Below are positions 3,591-19,050 of a DNA stretch of 28,986 nt, piece after piece. Every line of letters starts with the position of its first letter. Positions within the stretch are counted from its first letter, which is position 1. The position numbers were made by a program, and so were the translations under genes. The notes beneath the pieces were generated by a model. It was not told where the DNA came from, searched no databases, and was given only the letters and a program-made list of their open reading frames with translations. The stretch is from Corallococcus carmarthensis (GTDB taxonomy: Bacteria; Myxococcota; Myxococcia; Myxococcales; Myxococcaceae): positions 1-28,986 of the forward strand of contig NZ_RAWE01000122.1 of NCBI RefSeq assembly GCF_003611695.1. The letters are read 5' to 3'.

Positions 3591-3721
3591 GGGGAGCCCC
3601 CTCGTGTCAGGCCGCGAACACAGGCGCCGCGGACGTGCTTGGATTGCCGTGATTATCGAAAGGCAATGCGATCAGTTTCGCATCCCCAGTCACAATCGTG
3701 TCAAACCAGTGATTCCGGCAA

Positions 3722-3757
3722 CTTCAGTTTCAGCGGATCGATCCGCCGTGACTGAAG
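3722..3757. promoter_or_regulatory. Palindromic element in the AT-richer divergent intergenic region between the LysM gene and the 3782 gene
   Basis: cttcag-tttca-GCGGATCGATCCGC-cgtga-ctgaag has a perfect 14-bp core palindrome at 3733-3746 flanked by 6-bp inverted arms. A second inverted repeat, attgcc-N13-ggcaat, lies at 3643-3667. Confidence 0.35.
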
Positions 3758-3781
3758 AACCCGCTCAGGAGGCCCAACCGG

Positions 3782-4816
3782 ATGTCCAGGATCCAACCGG
3801 ATTTCAAAAGTGTGGCAATACTGTTTGCCATTTGTGTCACGGGCGCAGTCCCAGACGCCTCGGCCCAGGGGCCTGAAGGACTCACCGGGGTCTATTCGAA
3901 CAAGCAGGGACGCCTGGCCATCGTCGAGGGGAGCAACGAGACGCTCGTGCACTTCTCGGGGTCGTTCCCGCAGGGCAACAGCGCGGGCACCTGCGATTGC
4001 GCGTGGGTCGTCCAGAAGAAGACGGCCACGGCCTGGACCCTGGGCCAGGCGGACGACCCGGAGCCCTGGACGCTGCGCGTCAATCCCAAGCAGTTCGTCC
4101 TGGAGTCAGGCCCGACGCCTCAGTGTTGCGGCGCGGGCTACCCGGGCAAGGACACGTTCGCCCGGAGCACGTCCAAGCCGCTGGGCATCTGCAAGGTGAA
4201 GGCGTCCAAGGCGGGCTTCCACGCGTCGGACGCGGCCAACACCGCGCGCAAGGCGTTCGTGGTGTCCGGCGACGCGGTGGAGGCGTACGTCGACCCGGTG
4301 GAGCCGGACTTCCTCGCCGCGCGCTTCCAGGGCCCGCAGAAGGCCACGGCGGGGCTGCTCAAGCGCGAGGACCTGGACTGCTCGGCGGAATCAGCGCCCA
4401 CGGCCGCCAAGGCGCCGGTGGCCGCGGACAAGCTCCAGCCTTTCGCGGGGACGTGGGTGGAGCTGACACGCCAGGGAAAGGGCTTCGTCGTCCTCAAGCC
4501 CTGTTCGGCCGCGACGCGCAGCTTTACCGTCAAGCCCGCGACGGGCGAGGTGGAGGTGCAGTTGGGTCAGGAGGCCACGACGCTCAAGGTGACGTCCGTG
4601 GAGCCCGGAAAGGGCACCGGGGCCTGGGTGCTGGGGCTCACGGCGTCGGACGGCAAGCCGGAGGCGCTCCAGTGGAAGACGGCCGACGCCGCGAAGGGCA
4701 CCGTGACCGTCACCAGCCCGGACCTCTTCTCCCAGAGCCACGACTACGTGCGCCAGGAGAAGAAGTCCGGCTTCCCGTCCAAGCAGGAGACGGGGTGCGA
4801 CGAGTACGAGCGCTAA
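3782..4816 (+). CDS. Secreted hypothetical protein with an N-terminal signal peptide and several Cys pairs
   Basis: AGGAGG lies 9 nt upstream of ATG 3782. The N-terminus MSRIQPDFKSVAILFAICVTGAVPDASAQ is signal-peptide like. The 344-aa ORF has GC3-rich codon usage. Its stop overlaps the stop of the convergent 4813..6381 gene. Confidence 0.6.
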   Translation: MSRIQPDFKSVAILFAICVTGAVPDASAQGPEGLTGVYSNKQGRLAIVEGSNETLVHFSGSFPQGNSAGTCDCAWVVQKKTATAWTLGQADDPEPWTLRVNPKQFVLESGPTPQCCGAGYPGKDTFARSTSKPLGICKVKASKAGFHASDAANTARKAFVVSGDAVEAYVDPVEPDFLAARFQGPQKATAGLLKREDLDCSAESAPTAAKAPVAADKLQPFAGTWVELTRQGKGFVVLKPCSAATRSFTVKPATGEVEVQLGQEATTLKVTSVEPGKGTGAWVLGLTASDGKPEALQWKTADAAKGTVTVTSPDLFSQSHDYVRQEKKSGFPSKQETGCDEYER

Positions 4817-6381
4817 CGCGCCCGTGAACGCCGCCGGGCGCGGAGAACCCCGCCGAGCAGCAGCGCGACGAGCGCACCGGACAAGGGGCCTCCCGCCGCC
4901 TGGCAGCCACCGTCATCGTCCGGCGTGCGCGGATCATCGATGGGCTCCACGGGCCTGCCAGCGTCGACGGTGCCCGCGTCCATGCCGGCATCGGACGTCC
5001 CGGCATCGGCGGTCCCGGCGTCCGTGCCCGCATCCTGGGCATCGAGAGGCGCGCAGGACGCGGCCTGACCGGTGGCCGCGATGCACAGCCGGCCATAGCG
5101 CCCCAGCCCTTCGTTCCGCCCGTCCACGACCGCGACCACCACGCGCGTGGCGTCGCCGGAGGCCACCTGGGCGCGCAGGGCTTCAGGCCCGTCCGCGGTC
5201 ACCACTCGAAGCACGGCGTCGTCCGTGACGGCCGCGAGGACCAGGTGCAGCGCGGCCGGGTCGGTGCCCGGCTCGGGCTCGAACGAGGCCCCCACGAAGG
5301 ACGCGCCGCCGGGGACCTCGAAGAGCCGCGAGGCCGCCGCGGCGACGCGCACGCGGTCCTGCGTGTGGGGCAGCGCCACCGCCGGCGCCGACACCGGCGC
5401 ATAGCCCTCCCCTCGCGCGTAGCCGAACCCTGGCGTCGCGCGCGGGCCGGTGCCCAGGTTCCACGTGGCGAACAAGGTGAAGGCCGCGTCGAAGCTGGAG
5501 GCGAAGTCGCGGCGCAGGCAGGTGTCCAGCAGCACCGGCCAGCGGGCCTCGGGCTGCCGCACGGACTCCTCCAGGAGCGCGACGAGCGCACCGTCTCCGT
5601 AGTGCTCGCCGAGGAACTGGAAGAAGAGCCCCGCGCCGTAGGTGAAGCTCACGCCCGGCCCTGCCGGGTCCAGCGTCAGGGTGCTGTCCGGGCTGATCAT
5701 GTAGCCGCGGGTGAAGTTCTCCAGGTCATCGAGCGCGGGCTCGAAGCGCTCGGTGGCCCAGACGGCGGTGCCTTCCGAGGCGATGCCGCCCAGGCCGGGC
5801 CGGTAGGCGGCCTGGACCGCGTGGAAGAACTCGTGGCTGGAGAGGATCTCCACGGCCTCGGAGTCGGACGGGTAGCTGTAGCCCGCGAAGTCGTTCTCCT
5901 GAAGCATGAAGCCCGTGCAGCGCGTGGTGCCGTCCAGGCAGGTCTCCTGGCGGAAGGCGCCGTCACCAATCCCCGCGAAGTCCACCAGGTACACGTCGAA
6001 GCGGCCATCGCCGCCGTCGTCCCCGGCCGGATTCGTGTCGTCGGGCGGCAGACGGAAGCCCAGGCCCGCGTAGAACGTCGCCACGCGTTCGTAGGTGCGC
6101 CCGACGAGCTCCACGAAGTCGGGCACGCCGCTGCCATCCGCGTCCGCCGCGGGCACGGCGTGCTTGCCCTGACGGGTGAAGTGGATGCGGAAGCGCCCGC
6201 CCGGCGACAGCGCGGACTCCACCGTGTCCTCGGGCAGGTAGCGCGGCTCGGGCGAGGTGGGCGAGGTGGGCCGGCTGGATTCGGCGGCCAACCCTGCCAC
6301 GGCCTCCCGCTCGTGCGGGAGGCCGCGCGGGGTCCCCGCGCCAGTCAGCAGCAGCAGCAGCGTGGGAACCCCGAGCGTCAT
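4813..6381 (-). CDS. Secreted HExxH zinc-metallopeptidase-like protein with a DAGT-repeat linker and a MYXO-CTERM-like C-terminal sorting tail
   Basis: The start is taken at the internal Met MTLGVPTLLLLLTGAGT (signal peptide). Its ATG overlaps the TGA of the upstream lipoprotein gene in an ATGA arrangement. The motif SSHEFFHAVQ (HExxH) is present. The C-terminus has the repeats DAGTDAGTADAGTSDAGMDAGTVDAG, then GGCQAAGG...LVALLLGGVLRARRRSRAR, matching the GGC / hydrophobic / Arg-rich pattern of MYXO-CTERM. The ORF track extends it to 6798, but that part overlaps the upstream gene. Confidence 0.6.
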   Translation of the reverse strand: MTLGVPTLLLLLTGAGTPRGLPHEREAVAGLAAESSRPTSPTSPEPRYLPEDTVESALSPGGRFRIHFTRQGKHAVPAADADGSGVPDFVELVGRTYERVATFYAGLGFRLPPDDTNPAGDDGGDGRFDVYLVDFAGIGDGAFRQETCLDGTTRCTGFMLQENDFAGYSYPSDSEAVEILSSHEFFHAVQAAYRPGLGGIASEGTAVWATERFEPALDDLENFTRGYMISPDSTLTLDPAGPGVSFTYGAGLFFQFLGEHYGDGALVALLEESVRQPEARWPVLLDTCLRRDFASSFDAAFTLFATWNLGTGPRATPGFGYARGEGYAPVSAPAVALPHTQDRVRVAAAASRLFEVPGGASFVGASFEPEPGTDPAALHLVLAAVTDDAVLRVVTADGPEALRAQVASGDATRVVVAVVDGRNEGLGRYGRLCIAATGQAASCAPLDAQDAGTDAGTADAGTSDAGMDAGTVDAGRPVEPIDDPRTPDDDGGCQAAGGPLSGALVALLLGGVLRARRRSRAR

Positions 6382-7430
6382 CACGGCAGGTAGGCCCACC
6401 GCAGGCGGATCGACCCCGCGCTGGTCGACGAGCTCACCGAGCCCGTCGTGTCGCACTGCGCCTGCACCGTGGGCTCGTAGTACGCCTTGACCTGCAGCTT
6501 CGCGTGACGGCCGTCCGCCAACTGGAGGATGTAGACCTTGTTCGTCATCTGGAGGCAGCTGGCGTAGGTCCAGAACGAGAGGGTCTGGGTCGCCGGGCTG
6601 CCCAGGCCATACTCGTCCCCGCTGAACGTGCAGGTGTCGGGGGTGTAGTAGTTCTCCGTCTTGAACTGCGCATCCACGGGCACGGACGTCACCGATTCGA
6701 ACGTCGTGCCGTCCGGCGTCTGCGCCACCGCCACGCACGACGGGCCGGAGACGCCGCTGTTGAAGCGGACGACGTACCGGCGCACCGCGACGTCCCACGC
6801 CGTCGAGCTCAGCGCGGCCTGGTCATCGATGGCCACCTTCTGGAGCCCCGTCGCCGTGAAGCGCGCGTAGGTGTACGACTCCGGCACGCTCGTGCCACCC
6901 GCGCGGCCGTCCAGGAACGTGAGGAACTCGCCCTGCGTCGTGCCCTCCTCGGTCACGCCACCGCTGGCGACGACGGTGCGGAGCCTGAGCCGGTCGATGC
7001 TCTGCTCCGTGCAGGCCACGGTGTTGCGGCACAGCTCCGCGCCGCCGTCCGTGGGAGTGCCCGCGTCGGTCTCCGTCCCGGCGTCCGTCTGCGTGCCCGC
7101 GTCCGTCTGCGTGCCCGCGTCGGTGCCCGTCCCCGCGTCCGTCTGCGTGCCCGCGTCGGTGCCCGTCCCCGCATCCGTCTCGCCGCCGGTGCCCGCGTCG
7201 TTCTCGGGCTCCTCGGGCGGCGTCAGGGTGCGCAGCTCGCACGTGTTGTCGGCGGTGCAGACGTACGCCTTGCCCGTGGGGGCCGCGCCCAGATCGCGGC
7301 AGTCGAATGCGTCCACGCACTCGTCGCCGTTGCATCCCGGCACCACCGCGGCCAGCGCGAGGGCCGCCAGGACCCCCATGCCGTACCACCGCGCGCCGCT
7401 CTTCCGGACCACCCCTCCAGGGTTGCTCAT
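6381..7430 (-). CDS. Lipoprotein with a Cys-rich N-terminal module, a TDAGT(Q/G) hexapeptide repeat linker and a C-terminal domain of about 220 aa with unknown function
   Basis: From ATG 7430 the N-terminus is MSNPGGVVRKSGARWYGMGVLAALALAAVVPGC, with a VPGC lipobox. AAGGTG lies 6 nt upstream. Alternative starts are GTG 7439 and ATG 7379. The linker is TDAGTGTDAGTQTDAGTGTDAGTQTDAGTQTDAGTETDAGT. The gene lies 85 nt downstream of the MVP stop on the same strand. Confidence 0.7.
   Translation of the reverse strand: MSNPGGVVRKSGARWYGMGVLAALALAAVVPGCNGDECVDAFDCRDLGAAPTGKAYVCTADNTCELRTLTPPEEPENDAGTGGETDAGTGTDAGTQTDAGTGTDAGTQTDAGTQTDAGTETDAGTPTDGGAELCRNTVACTEQSIDRLRLRTVVASGGVTEEGTTQGEFLTFLDGRAGGTSVPESYTYARFTATGLQKVAIDDQAALSSTAWDVAVRRYVVRFNSGVSGPSCVAVAQTPDGTTFESVTSVPVDAQFKTENYYTPDTCTFSGDEYGLGSPATQTLSFWTYASCLQMTNKVYILQLADGRHAKLQVKAYYEPTVQAQCDTTGSVSSSTSAGSIRLRWAYLP
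7051..7200. repeat. About 8 tandem units of an 18-bp repeat (gtgcccgcgtccgtctgc and variants)
   Basis: Seen directly in the sequence. It encodes the TDAGTx repeats of the lipoprotein on the minus strand. Confidence 0.9.
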
Positions 7431-7524
7431 CGTCTTCACCTTTCGATGCGGAGTCCCGCCGTCGTTCGAAAGGGACGATCTCTATTCGATAACGATTCTC
7501 ATTTTCAATATCGTTCTCCCAACT

Positions 7525-17301: not shown

Positions 17302-17460
17302 GCATTCGAACAACCAGCGCAGCGGGGGTCTTCCGTATTCAGACCAGAAAGACACGCGGGGGGCCATGACGGCGCCCGCTCTGCCCCACAAGGCTTGAGT
17401 GGTGAAGCTGGTTCAAGAAATCCAGCAACACAAACCGCTGCGATATCGACTTGCACGACC

Positions 17461-18411
17461 ATGAAAACCCCTGAGAGACCTCATCGGAACCCGATGACCT
17501 TCATTGCAATGGTCATCGCTTTGATTTCCAGCCTCCCCAGCCCCGCGCATGCGCAGTCGTTCTGCTATTCGAACAGCGGCTCCACTTGCTACTACGTTTG
17601 TGGTCCATCGAAGCCGACTGCCCCCTACGGCACGATTCACCAGTGCACATGCGATGGCTCCTCCATGAACCTCTCTCCCTACGGTTCAGAGATGGGACCG
17701 ACATGTAACAGCATCCTCAGCACTTGCCTGACCACCGGAACAGGCGCTCCATCGAGTTGGACAACTTGCCCCCAGTGGCCGTGCCAGCCCGGCCAAGCAT
17801 GCGTGACCTCGTCCGGGTGCAATGGCACTTGCGTATTCACGCCACCCTCCGGCAGTCAGAGCACCCCTCCTGTCGAATGCGTTGCGCCGCCTTCAAGCCA
17901 GGCATGTGGTAGTACGTGCTGCGGACCCGATCAAATCTGCTCCAATGAGACCTGCAAGCCGCGCTGTGGAGGCGCCCCGTATGACCCGGCAACCCAGTGC
18001 TGTGAAAGCCAGGAGGTCTTGTCAAAGCTCCAGATAGCGGATCTGTCCAAGTGTCCCCATCGCACTGCCAGGCCCGGCTGGGATCCCAATGATCCCAGCA
18101 ACCTCAATGCCTGTGGCCCATCAGGGTCGAAACTCCCGGTTCCCGACTCCTACGGAGCGGCTGACTTCCGACCCGGCTGCAACGCGCACGACGCCTGCTA
18201 CGGGACCTGCAACAACAACAAGCTCATTTGTGACACAGGCATGCACAGCGCACTGGAGGCGTCCTGCAAGAGTGCCTACAGCAACTCCTCCATGGCCATT
18301 CAGAGGTCCCGCTGCTTGAAGGTCGCCGCTGTCTACGCTGTCTCGGTGATAGCTGGAGGGGGTACCGCGTACGACAACGCCCAGAAGGCAGCGTGCATTT
18401 GTTGTCCCTGA
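17461..18411 (+). CDS. Secreted Cys-rich protein with a C-terminal phospholipase-A2-like domain (tentative)
   Basis: The signal peptide is MKTPERPHRNPMTFIAMVIALISSLPSPAHAQS; an alternative ATG lies at 17494. There are more than 30 Cys residues. The C-terminus has GCNAHDACYGTCN...C...C...AAVYAVSVIAGGG, i.e. the HD-x-x-Y catalytic dyad pattern of secreted and prokaryotic PLA2s. The gene is lower in GC than its neighbours. Confidence 0.55.
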   Translation: MKTPERPHRNPMTFIAMVIALISSLPSPAHAQSFCYSNSGSTCYYVCGPSKPTAPYGTIHQCTCDGSSMNLSPYGSEMGPTCNSILSTCLTTGTGAPSSWTTCPQWPCQPGQACVTSSGCNGTCVFTPPSGSQSTPPVECVAPPSSQACGSTCCGPDQICSNETCKPRCGGAPYDPATQCCESQEVLSKLQIADLSKCPHRTARPGWDPNDPSNLNACGPSGSKLPVPDSYGAADFRPGCNAHDACYGTCNNNKLICDTGMHSALEASCKSAYSNSSMAIQRSRCLKVAAVYAVSVIAGGGTAYDNAQKAACICCP

Positions 18412-18456: not shown

Positions 18457-19050
18457 ATGAAAAACACTGCCAGGACATATGTGGGTTTACTGCTTGCGGT
18501 TGCTTTCTCAGCGGCATGTTCCGACCGCCCAGCAGAGCCCTCCGCACCTCCTCCGGGCGCGGCATCACGTGCAGCGCTCCTACAGGACTTGTCGGGGACA
18601 TGGGTCGGCACCCTCTCAATGAGTGGCGCACAGTCCACGGACGTCCGCTTCGAAATCACGGACAACAATGGCCAGCTTTCAGGAGTGGCTTTCGACAAAG
18701 AGCCCAGCAGCTCTCAGTTCATCAGGACAGGGACGTTGTCGGGAACCCGCACCGGGAACACGGCTCAGTGGACAAGTGACGGTGACTCCGTTTCCGGTAC
18801 GCTGAGTGGCAGTTCGTTCGCGGGGACCTTCACCATCGCCAACGATGGGTTTGGGCAGTCATTGACAGCGCAGGTGAGCTTGCAGAAGTCTTCGTGCGTT
18901 CCGGAATCGGATGGAGCCTTCTGTTCTCGGAATGCCTTCGCCTGCGGGACCGCGGTGTCCGCGGACAACTGTGGTGTCCGGCGAGTCGTTGCGAGCTGCG
19001 GTGTGTGTGCACCAGGGACGTCGTGCACCCAGCAGAACACGTGTCAGTGA
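18457..19050 (+). CDS. Hypothetical lipoprotein with a Cys-rich C-terminal tail
   Basis: The N-terminus is MKNTARTYVGLLLAVAFSAACSD (lipobox). The protein is 197 aa. A terminator hairpin follows the gene. Confidence 0.6.
   Translation: MKNTARTYVGLLLAVAFSAACSDRPAEPSAPPPGAASRAALLQDLSGTWVGTLSMSGAQSTDVRFEITDNNGQLSGVAFDKEPSSSQFIRTGTLSGTRTGNTAQWTSDGDSVSGTLSGSSFAGTFTIANDGFGQSLTAQVSLQKSSCVPESDGAFCSRNAFACGTAVSADNCGVRRVVASCGVCAPGTSCTQQNTCQ

Follow-up and report, generated by a model that had tools for sequence, protein, structure and literature searches.

The window analyzed here, i.e., a stretch of 28,986 nucleotides of a Corallococcus carmarthensis contig, contains an intact open reading frame (ORF) of 316 codons, extending from the ATG at position 17461 to the TGA at 18409–18411 on the forward strand. 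The encoded protein combines a predicted export signal, a cysteine-rich N-terminal module and a C-terminal secretory phospholipase A2 (sPLA2) domain which, by sequence comparison, belongs to the group XII family represented in humans by PLA2G12A. The gene is followed by a lipoprotein gene, and both constitute an obligate, mobile two-gene cassette. The products of this cassette are interpreted as a secreted, Ca2+-dependent group XII-like phospholipase effector and its cognate envelope-anchored inhibitor or immunity lipoprotein, a reading to which a probability of about 0.6 is assigned. It is plausible that the pair serves this predatory myxobacterium as a membrane-attacking weapon. Coordinates of all relevant features are summarized in Table 1.

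Catalytic domain, N-terminal module and export signal

The translated protein matched a single Pfam family, namely PF06951 (group XII secretory PLA2), with an E-value of 2.8e-11 and a score of 44.1 bits against a cut-off of 34; the match covers residues 228–315 and model positions 90–177, while model positions 1–89 were left unaligned. PF06951 was likewise precomputed for all homologs considered (11/11), whereas the prokaryotic PLA2 family PF09056 did not match the window protein at E ≤ 10 in the Pfam search. NCBIfam provided no family for the PLA2, for the partner lipoprotein or for the DUF6310 and DUF5953 genes of the window described below. In a BLASTP comparison with human PLA2G12A (represented by what we take to be its sequence, matching PF06951 with 281.9 bits), residues 204–314 were aligned with an E-value of 1e-11 and 30% identity over 111 aa. 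This alignment pairs NACG with NGCG in the Ca2+ loop, CNAHDACYGTC with CNQHDRCYETC, the CD motifs of both proteins and the C-terminal QKAACIC with QRAACRC. Of the 11 human cysteines covered by the alignment, nine have counterparts in the window protein, and equivalents of C105, C131 and C169 are absent.

Matches from an exhaustive profile search with the bacterial homologs were compiled into an alignment of 129 sequences (A4), and the resulting bacterial profile scored human PLA2G12A with 91.2 bits (E 7e-21 at library scale). Within the motif C240-N-A-H243-D244-A-C246-Y247-G-T-C250 of the window protein, both proposed catalytic residues H243 and D244 are invariant among the 129 homologs, as are C218, C240, C246, C250, C257, C269, C285 and Q308; N216, G219, F236, Y247 (at least 90%) and D258 are nearly invariant. 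D258 presumably acts as the second residue of the His-Asp dyad, a role that we assume by analogy with the Streptomyces violaceoruber enzyme. The HD-C-Y pattern on which the original prediction was built is, judging from PF06951, human PLA2G12A and the 129 homologs, part of a genuine sPLA2 His/Asp/Tyr core and not a chance occurrence, but its attribution to group XIV has to be revised: by sequence, the family is group XII, with group XIV representing a superfamily cousin.

Regarding the fold, a single-sequence search of the PDB with the window protein yielded noise only. Screening of PDB sequences with the profile detected microbial group XIII/XIV sPLA2s alone (4aup, 2e-9; 1faz/1kp4, 6e-7; 8k1w; 7ygk). 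AlphaFold2 modeling of residues 166–316 with the homolog alignment resulted in a predicted local distance difference test score (pLDDT) of 95.6 and a predicted template modeling score (pTM) of 0.87, in which four helices come after a small beta-hairpin region and the first of them carries H243 and D244. A fold search with this domain model returned strong matches solely to microbial sPLA2s, the sPLA2 helical core being common to both, so that the PLA2 fold expected from the motif was recovered. Since no group XII structure was matched in the PDB, the structural ranking is biased, and group XIV is the nearest solved structure only. Taking sequence comparison and model together, the C-terminal domain is regarded as an sPLA2. 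A PLA2 located at the C-terminus had been predicted correctly, but the conserved domain begins at approximately residue 166 and not, as a length of about 90 aa had implied, at approximately residue 227.

These comparisons also bear on two other explanations. Membership in the group XIII/XIV sPLA2 family (PF09056) is improbable, given that PF06951 passes its cut-off where PF09056 remains unmatched, that the profile reaches 91 bits for human GXIIA vs. 25–40 bits for group XIII/XIV proteins, and that the motif takes the form HDxCYxTC together with the GXIIA-type cysteines and not the form HDFGY with few disulfides. That the motif arose by chance, or that the ORF is non-coding, might be suspected from the many long spurious ORFs in high-GC DNA and from the shorter public gene call, but is already refuted by the significant Pfam, BLASTP, profile and fold matches and by full-length orthologs in five genomes, leaving this explanation a negligible probability.

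As read from the sequence, the signal peptide begins with a positively charged n-region, continues with a hydrophobic core of 13 residues (FIAMVIALISSL) and ends in an A-H-A cleavage motif followed by Q. The cleavage site is retained in orthologs, showing A, S or T at position -3, Ala at -1 and Gln at +1. Moreover, the mature protein features an even number of Cys residues, namely 32, of which 18 are located within residues 32–165 and 14 within residues 166–316. The description of the gene product as a secreted Cys-rich protein is therefore supported by the Sec signal with its ortholog-conserved cleavage motif as well as by the Cys content of the mature form.

The peptides quoted in the original prediction, CGSTCCGPDQICSNETCKPRCG and GCNAHDACYGTC, are located at residues 149–170 and 239–250 of the 316-aa translation, respectively. 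A separate Cys-dense module had been proposed for the N-terminal 200 aa; the module as such was recovered, but it comprises residues 32–165 because the catalytic domain starts at approximately residue 166. Residues 32–165 had no match in Pfam. Among the matches listed for the exhaustive search, just two clusters cover the profile in full, starting at position 1 or 79, and P0153 matches positions 19–315; in approximately six metagenomic proteins, matching from profile positions 95–112 onward, the PLA2 domain is preceded by the second half of the module. Residues 87–165 (including CGSTCCGPDQICSNETC) recur C-terminal to the PLA2 domain at locus L026, and a Chloroflexota relative features a Stig1-type Cys-rich extension in place of the N-terminal module. 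Since its second half recurs on either side of the PLA2 domain and a Stig1-type extension can take its place, it is considered a shuffled accessory module.

Lipoprotein partner and occurrence of the domain in other genomes

In all four other loci featuring the full architecture (L001–L004), homologs of the partner lipoprotein with 51–60% identity are encoded directly downstream of the PLA2 gene. The reverse gene order, with the lipoprotein gene directly upstream of PLA2 (overlapping or separated by at most 14 nt), was observed in L013, L070/71, L072 and L073, whereas at L026, a locus harboring two pairs, the distance amounts to approximately 200 nt. A Myxococcaceae metagenome-assembled genome (MAG) encodes a 136-aa lipoprotein homolog whose gene shares an ATGA overlap with the PLA2 gene start. 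When the whole database was searched with the lipoprotein alone, only six clusters were obtained, and for three of these the longest contigs are equal in size to those of PLA2 clusters; P0163, the most distant of the six matches, is located 200 nt upstream of a PF06951 gene and is accompanied by a second pair on the opposite strand. A lipoprotein profile search provided further members, all retrieved ones possessing a lipobox, and the three new members with inspected contigs are encoded immediately upstream of a PF06951 gene (-4, +13 and +14 nt) in unrelated contexts. All inspected homologs from the lipoprotein-only search adjoin a PF06951 gene. In total, the two genes are paired in 11 of 11 intact loci, representing at least eight genomic contexts and both gene orders, and nucleotide homology between genomes ends at the PLA2 and lipoprotein genes. 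The two genes form an obligate and mobile cassette.

The lipobox residue Cys21 is invariant in nine homologs, and the h-regions of the family are rich in Leu and Ala and end with [AGS]C. The lipoprotein gene is missing from the gene calls publicly available for the sister assembly GCA_013116625.1, which show a gap after the PLA2 gene. No Pfam family was assigned to the lipoprotein, and profile searches against Pfam and the PDB returned no significant match for it. The profile of its core gave weak full-length, sub-threshold matches to avidin (E 0.08–0.5), which hints at a small calycin-type barrel.

In M. qinghaiensis (L028), an intact lipoprotein ORF resides beside what remains of the PLA2 gene, namely 41 codons containing an in-frame stop (approximately 3628–3781). 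Compared to a PLA2-bearing relative, the flanks are 92–96% identical, and approximately 1 kb over the PLA2 gene is replaced by 154 nt. The lipoprotein ORF begins at position 3842, and the public start at 4001 looks too short. In this arrangement, the lipoprotein gene resembles an orphan immunity gene.

As a separate observation, L026/L027 harbor two convergent lipoprotein–PLA2G12 pairs (154–1842 and 4001–7907) beside a gene for a large serine recombinase (Resolvase and Recombinase domains) and a RAMA-domain gene, hinting that these pairs ride on a mobile element.

The exhaustive profile search resulted in 5495 clusters when a limit of E ≤ 0.001 was applied and in 1665 with E ≤ 1e-10, the latter being the level that human GXIIA itself would reach with the bacterial profile. 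Both secreted stand-alone enzymes and Rhs toxin tips are represented among the clusters, which come from many phyla. Most of the 150 listed clusters matched profile positions from approximately 140 to 316 only. Pfam scores within the bacterial branch range from 28 to 60 bits, with L012 (28 bits) falling below the cut-off, L007 being undetected and several others (L070–L072) being weak; PF06951 under-detects the bacterial branch. In a genome scan considering one genome per species, 23 loci were obtained, and the full architecture is confined therein to myxobacteria, namely Vitiosangium, C. sicarius, M. fulvus and a related strain.

The PLA2G12-like domain constitutes the C-terminal tip of Rhs/YD proteins in Gammaproteobacteria, Planctomycetota, Verrucomicrobiota and Geobacter MAGs. 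The 1404-aa protein encoded at L022 (92–4306), for example, features DUF6531, RHS repeats (215 bits) and the motif PVRFVDPLGL followed by the PLA2 domain, and similar Rhs/YD architectures with the domain right after DPxGL were found at L015, L016, L017, L019 and L023. Small ORFs encoding multi-transmembrane or lipobox proteins are located downstream of the Rhs–PLA2 genes and represent candidate immunity genes, as they occupy the position at which one would look for immunity to a membrane-active toxin. Weak mutual similarity was noted between the regions L022 4303–4587 and L024 4308–4586. The Pfam scan of the window protein revealed neither an Rhs nor another delivery domain, its only additions to the catalytic domain being the Sec signal and the Cys module. 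Actinomycetota and Chloroflexota encode the PLA2G12-like domain as a stand-alone protein with a Sec leader or, in several cases, a twin-arginine translocation (TAT)-like leader (e.g., TSRRQVLKG in L007). At L006 (4525–5601), L007–L010 and L026 (8068 to the end), the PLA2 gene is followed by a gene for a MauE/DoxX membrane domain fused to a thioredoxin-like redoxin, which plausibly acts as a dedicated disulfide-maturation partner of the PLA2.

Proposed mode of action and alternative explanations

According to the proposed mechanism, the signal peptide would be cleaved after A-H-A, and the protein would undergo oxidative folding in the periplasm, where its Cys residues could form up to 16 disulfides, followed by release from the cell, e.g., via type II secretion or vesicles. 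The C-terminal domain would then hydrolyze the sn-2 ester of membrane glycerophospholipids, with His243 activating a water molecule, Asp244 and the N-x-C-G-x-x-G loop holding Ca2+, and Tyr247 and Asp258 supporting the His residue. The N-terminal Cys module would probably contribute targeting or latency, which is a guess at its role. Since a Gram-negative producer would fold an active phospholipase in the periplasm beside two phospholipid leaflets, a co-expressed anchored inhibitor is proposed: the lipoprotein most likely remains attached to the envelope of the producer and binds or inhibits the enzyme, by which the producer's membranes would be protected. The biological role would consist in damaging prey or competitor membranes.

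The suggestion in the original prediction that the gene encodes an effector or toxin is reasonable in view of relatives carrying the domain as an Rhs C-terminal toxin and of the presence of the cassette in differing genomic contexts. The composition of the gene is atypical for the region, and it is part of a low-GC3 island. Its GC content is 0.60 vs. 0.68 for the window, and GC content at third codon positions (GC3) amounts to 0.70 for the PLA2 gene and 0.67 for the lipoprotein gene vs. 0.84–0.96 for neighboring genes, in agreement with the lower-GC gene described originally.

Two other functions were considered, both of which fit the data less well than a phospholipase effector with a neutralizing lipoprotein. 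A nutritional exo-lipase digesting prey lipids, with the lipoprotein serving as surface or vesicle anchor or as a calycin/avidin-like binder of released fatty acids or lysolipids for uptake, appears unlikely. Two secreted GDSL lipases are encoded immediately upstream in divergent orientation and would suit a digestive function, but they are unlinked to the cassette in other genomes. The weak match of the lipoprotein core to avidin, a ligand-binding beta-barrel, would likewise agree with lipid uptake but is not significant, and the lack of a toxin-delivery domain in the window protein has to be set against the identical catalytic domain type forming an Rhs toxin tip elsewhere. Moreover, the lipoprotein is kept where the PLA2 is deleted. 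A catalytically dead PLA2-like scaffold binding a membrane, receptor or lipid, comparable to vertebrate group XIIB or the Lys49 myotoxins, has only a very slight probability: known inactive forms lost the His or the Ca2+-binding Asp, whereas His243, Asp244, Tyr247, Asp258 and the C-G of the Ca2+ loop are all kept in the window protein and are invariant or nearly so in the homologs. In favor of such a scaffold, the large non-catalytic Cys-rich module, the result of the literature search given below, and Ala217 in the Ca2+ loop, where the family consensus is Gly, can be cited.

Several observations weigh against the effector–immunity interpretation. The literature search returned no activity, secretion or immunity data on bacterial PF06951 proteins, and the single prokaryotic PF06951 candidate assayed, from Halogeometricum, was not toxic in yeast (PMC11297309). 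Since the window protein is devoid of an Rhs or delivery domain, the use of the domain as a toxin in relatives does not necessarily extend to it. The full-length AlphaFold2 model reached a pLDDT of 54, with low confidence for the N-terminal module. Furthermore, the lipoprotein belongs to no recognizable inhibitor family, and its sub-threshold likeness to avidin would also fit ligand binding. Orphaning of the lipoprotein gene in M. qinghaiensis is recent (dS, i.e., the synonymous divergence, to the PLA2-bearing relative 0.068; dN/dS, the ratio of nonsynonymous to synonymous divergence, 0.48), and the intact lipoprotein is therefore weak evidence of independent selection. Finally, a sigma-70 scan detected no promoter and terminator-like sites occurred at background level, providing no proof of co-transcription.

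Gene start, neighboring genes and relation to known systems

The NCBI entry corresponding to the gene is identical to the C-terminal 239 aa and is labeled "hypothetical protein". This public gene call starts at Met78 and thereby lacks the signal peptide together with one half of the Cys module (residues 1–77, window 17461–17691). Comparably short public calls exist for Vitiosangium (237 aa) and Myxococcus sp. AM011 (234 aa), and the upstream codons are conserved in frame. Five full-length orthologs of 311–326 aa with 46–53% identity can be aligned from residue 1, and in a tblastn search, Vitiosangium DNA matched residues 2–316 with 61% identity, in frame upstream of the public start. Because of these orthologs and the Vitiosangium match, the ATG at 17461 is favored over Met78, and the 239-aa call is, on this comparative evidence, too short. 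The ORF finder also reported a 512-aa ORF starting with GTG; it overlaps the divergently oriented GDSL gene and was rejected as a gene. Accordingly, two annotation corrections arise for the locus, namely a public start codon that strips the signal peptide and a partner gene that is unannotated.

The upstream element that was said to be shared with a lipoprotein toxin-like gene is real, being 64 nt long and 86% identical between its copies, but it is not part of the conserved cassette: in the related loci searched, it was missing ahead of the PLA2 orthologs and is therefore hardly informative on acquisition. The copy at 9886–9949 is located 17 nt before the start of the DUF6310 lipoprotein gene. 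Folding prediction for the element suggested two hairpins with z-scores of -3.4 and -4.0, and Rfam revealed no family in the window, the element included. In JGI metagenomes, the 20-nt core of the element had 40 matches, mostly of 20–25 nt, the longest measuring 42 nt at 83% identity; no match clearly reaches past the core, and these hits therefore look like chance. A sigma-54 promoter within the element was considered (TGGAGC-N5-TTGC in copy 1) and dropped, as it is missing in copy 2.

The DUF6310 lipoprotein gene (9966–10892; C-terminal domain, E 7e-55; GC3 0.73) overlaps a DUF5953 gene (10880–11644; E 2e-115; GC3 0.67). Their layout resembles, by analogy, a myxobacterial SitA/SitI-type lipoprotein toxin–immunity cassette; the literature search returned no paper on DUF6310 or DUF5953. 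The GDSL lipases are tandem secreted paralogs on the reverse strand (15304–16197 and 16194–17132; GC3 0.94–0.96), sharing 300 nt at 90% identity and oriented divergently from the PLA2 gene. They were rejected as part of the system, being absent beside every ortholog. Elsewhere in the window, at 7019–7195, at least seven copies of an 18-nt tandem repeat (GTGCCCGCGTCNGTNNNC type) are located within a long ORF region, which suggests a hexapeptide-repeat protein segment.

Table 1. Features of the phospholipase–lipoprotein locus and their positions in the window.
Feature	Position	Strand	Basis or remark
Secreted group-XII-like phospholipase A2 coding sequence (CDS), 316 aa	17461..18411 (including stop)	+	ORF and translation, orthologs
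Sec signal peptide, residues 1–31 (MKTPERPHRNPMTFIAMVIALISSLPSPAHA, followed by QS)	17461..17553	+	read from sequence
N-terminal Cys-rich module, residues 32–165, 18 Cys, lineage-restricted	17554..17955	+	profile coverage, no Pfam match
PLA2G12-like catalytic domain, residues 166–316, 14 Cys	17956..18408	+	
Putative Ca2+-binding loop N216-A-C218-G219-P-S-G222	18106..18126	+	aligned to NGCGSPLFG of human PLA2G12A
Predicted catalytic H243-D244-A-C246-Y247	18187..18201	+	conservation in 129 sequences; HDRCY of human GXIIA, HDFGY of group XIII/XIV structures
D258, putative Asp partner in the His-Asp dyad	18232..18234	+	nearly invariant; aligned with the (C/I)D-motif Asp of human GXIIA and 4aup/1faz
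Partner lipoprotein CDS, 197 aa	18457..19050	+	45 nt downstream of PLA2 gene; homologs adjoin PF06951 genes
Lipoprotein signal peptide and lipobox LAVAFSAA-C21	18457..18519	+	read from sequence
Beta-rich core of lipoprotein, ~residues 43–145, G-x-W-x-G start	18583..18891	+	sole part shared with distant family members
8-Cys C-terminal tail of lipoprotein	18892..19047	+	close myxobacterial orthologs only; absent in L013, L026 and the P0171–P0176 type
64-nt imperfect-palindrome element	17240..17303	+	~158 nt before PLA2 start; 86% identical to 9886–9949

Bacterial PF06951 members were reportedly noted in a domain survey by Nevalainen et al. in 2012. The PF06951 family is already catalogued, and the new part is the lipoprotein partner; this partner and the size of the bacterial branch appear to be undescribed. 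InterPro places 96% of PF06951 occurrences in eukaryotes, and a prokaryotic PF06951 protein has been listed as a toxin candidate of extracellular contractile injection systems (eCIS) (PMC11297309). In the literature search, no paper on bacterial PF06951 enzymes was found, a prokaryotic PF06951 protein being mentioned in PMC11297309 only. It is conceivable, though rather doubtful at present, that the lipoprotein family represents the first dedicated inhibitor or immunity factor for an sPLA2-fold toxin, that the pair belongs to a widespread, unrecognized bacterial PLA2G12-type effector–immunity module comprising Sec/TAT stand-alone proteins as well as Rhs tips, and that animal group XII sPLA2s may derive from a bacterial branch whose size greatly exceeds what Pfam indicates. 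If the enzyme is active and the lipoprotein neutralizes it, myxobacteria would gain a membrane-lytic effector with an immunity factor, relevant to predation and strain competition. Furthermore, the Tox-PLA2 polymorphic toxins would gain their first immunity family, and a natural protein inhibitor scaffold would become available for a poorly understood human enzyme family.

Compared to animal group XII sPLA2 (PLA2G12A), the window protein is likewise secreted and disulfide-rich and shares the catalytic domain with the Ca2+ loop (N)GCG, CNxHDxCYxTC, CD and the C-terminal QxAACxC, the match being significant in both directions. Differences consist in a sequence identity of approximately 30%, in a beta-hairpin segment (residues 166–215) plus 18-Cys module where the animal protein has its own N-terminal region, and in the pairing of the bacterial gene with a lipoprotein gene. 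With the microbial group XIII/XIV sPLA2s (PF09056), such as those of Streptomyces violaceoruber (1KP4/1LWB/1FAZ), Tuber borchii (TbSP1, 4AUP) and Sciscionella (7YGK), it has the all-alpha core, the His-Asp pair with a distal Asp and the secreted nature in common. Their motif reads HDFGY whereas that of the window protein is of the HDxCY type, and the domain in the window is longer, contains 14 Cys residues and has a hairpin region at its N-terminus and a CxC of the GXII type at its C-terminus.

Among polymorphic toxins, Tox-PLA2 was defined in Rhs toxins on the 1KP4-type motif CxxHxxxYxN, with no immunity protein listed (Zhang et al. 2012, PMC3482391). The likeness lies in a PLA2-fold C-terminal toxin of Rhs or filamentous proteins, the relatives of the window domain being positioned directly after DPxGL. 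In contrast, the window protein is a stand-alone, Sec-secreted protein without Rhs and with a conserved partner. Pairs of an enzyme or effector and its neutralizer are exemplified by Tle–Tli of the type VI secretion system (T6SS), Serratia PhlA–PhlB and the protease pair AprA–AprI; AprI/Inh and MliC/PliC are beta-barrel inhibitors of periplasmic or lipoprotein type. No sequence relationship to any of these was found, and the sPLA2 fold differs from the alpha/beta-hydrolase fold of Tle. By analogy, the cassette described here would resemble them in its layout, in which an envelope-damaging hydrolase is encoded beside a small envelope neutralizer, in this case a lipoprotein that is probably a small beta-barrel.

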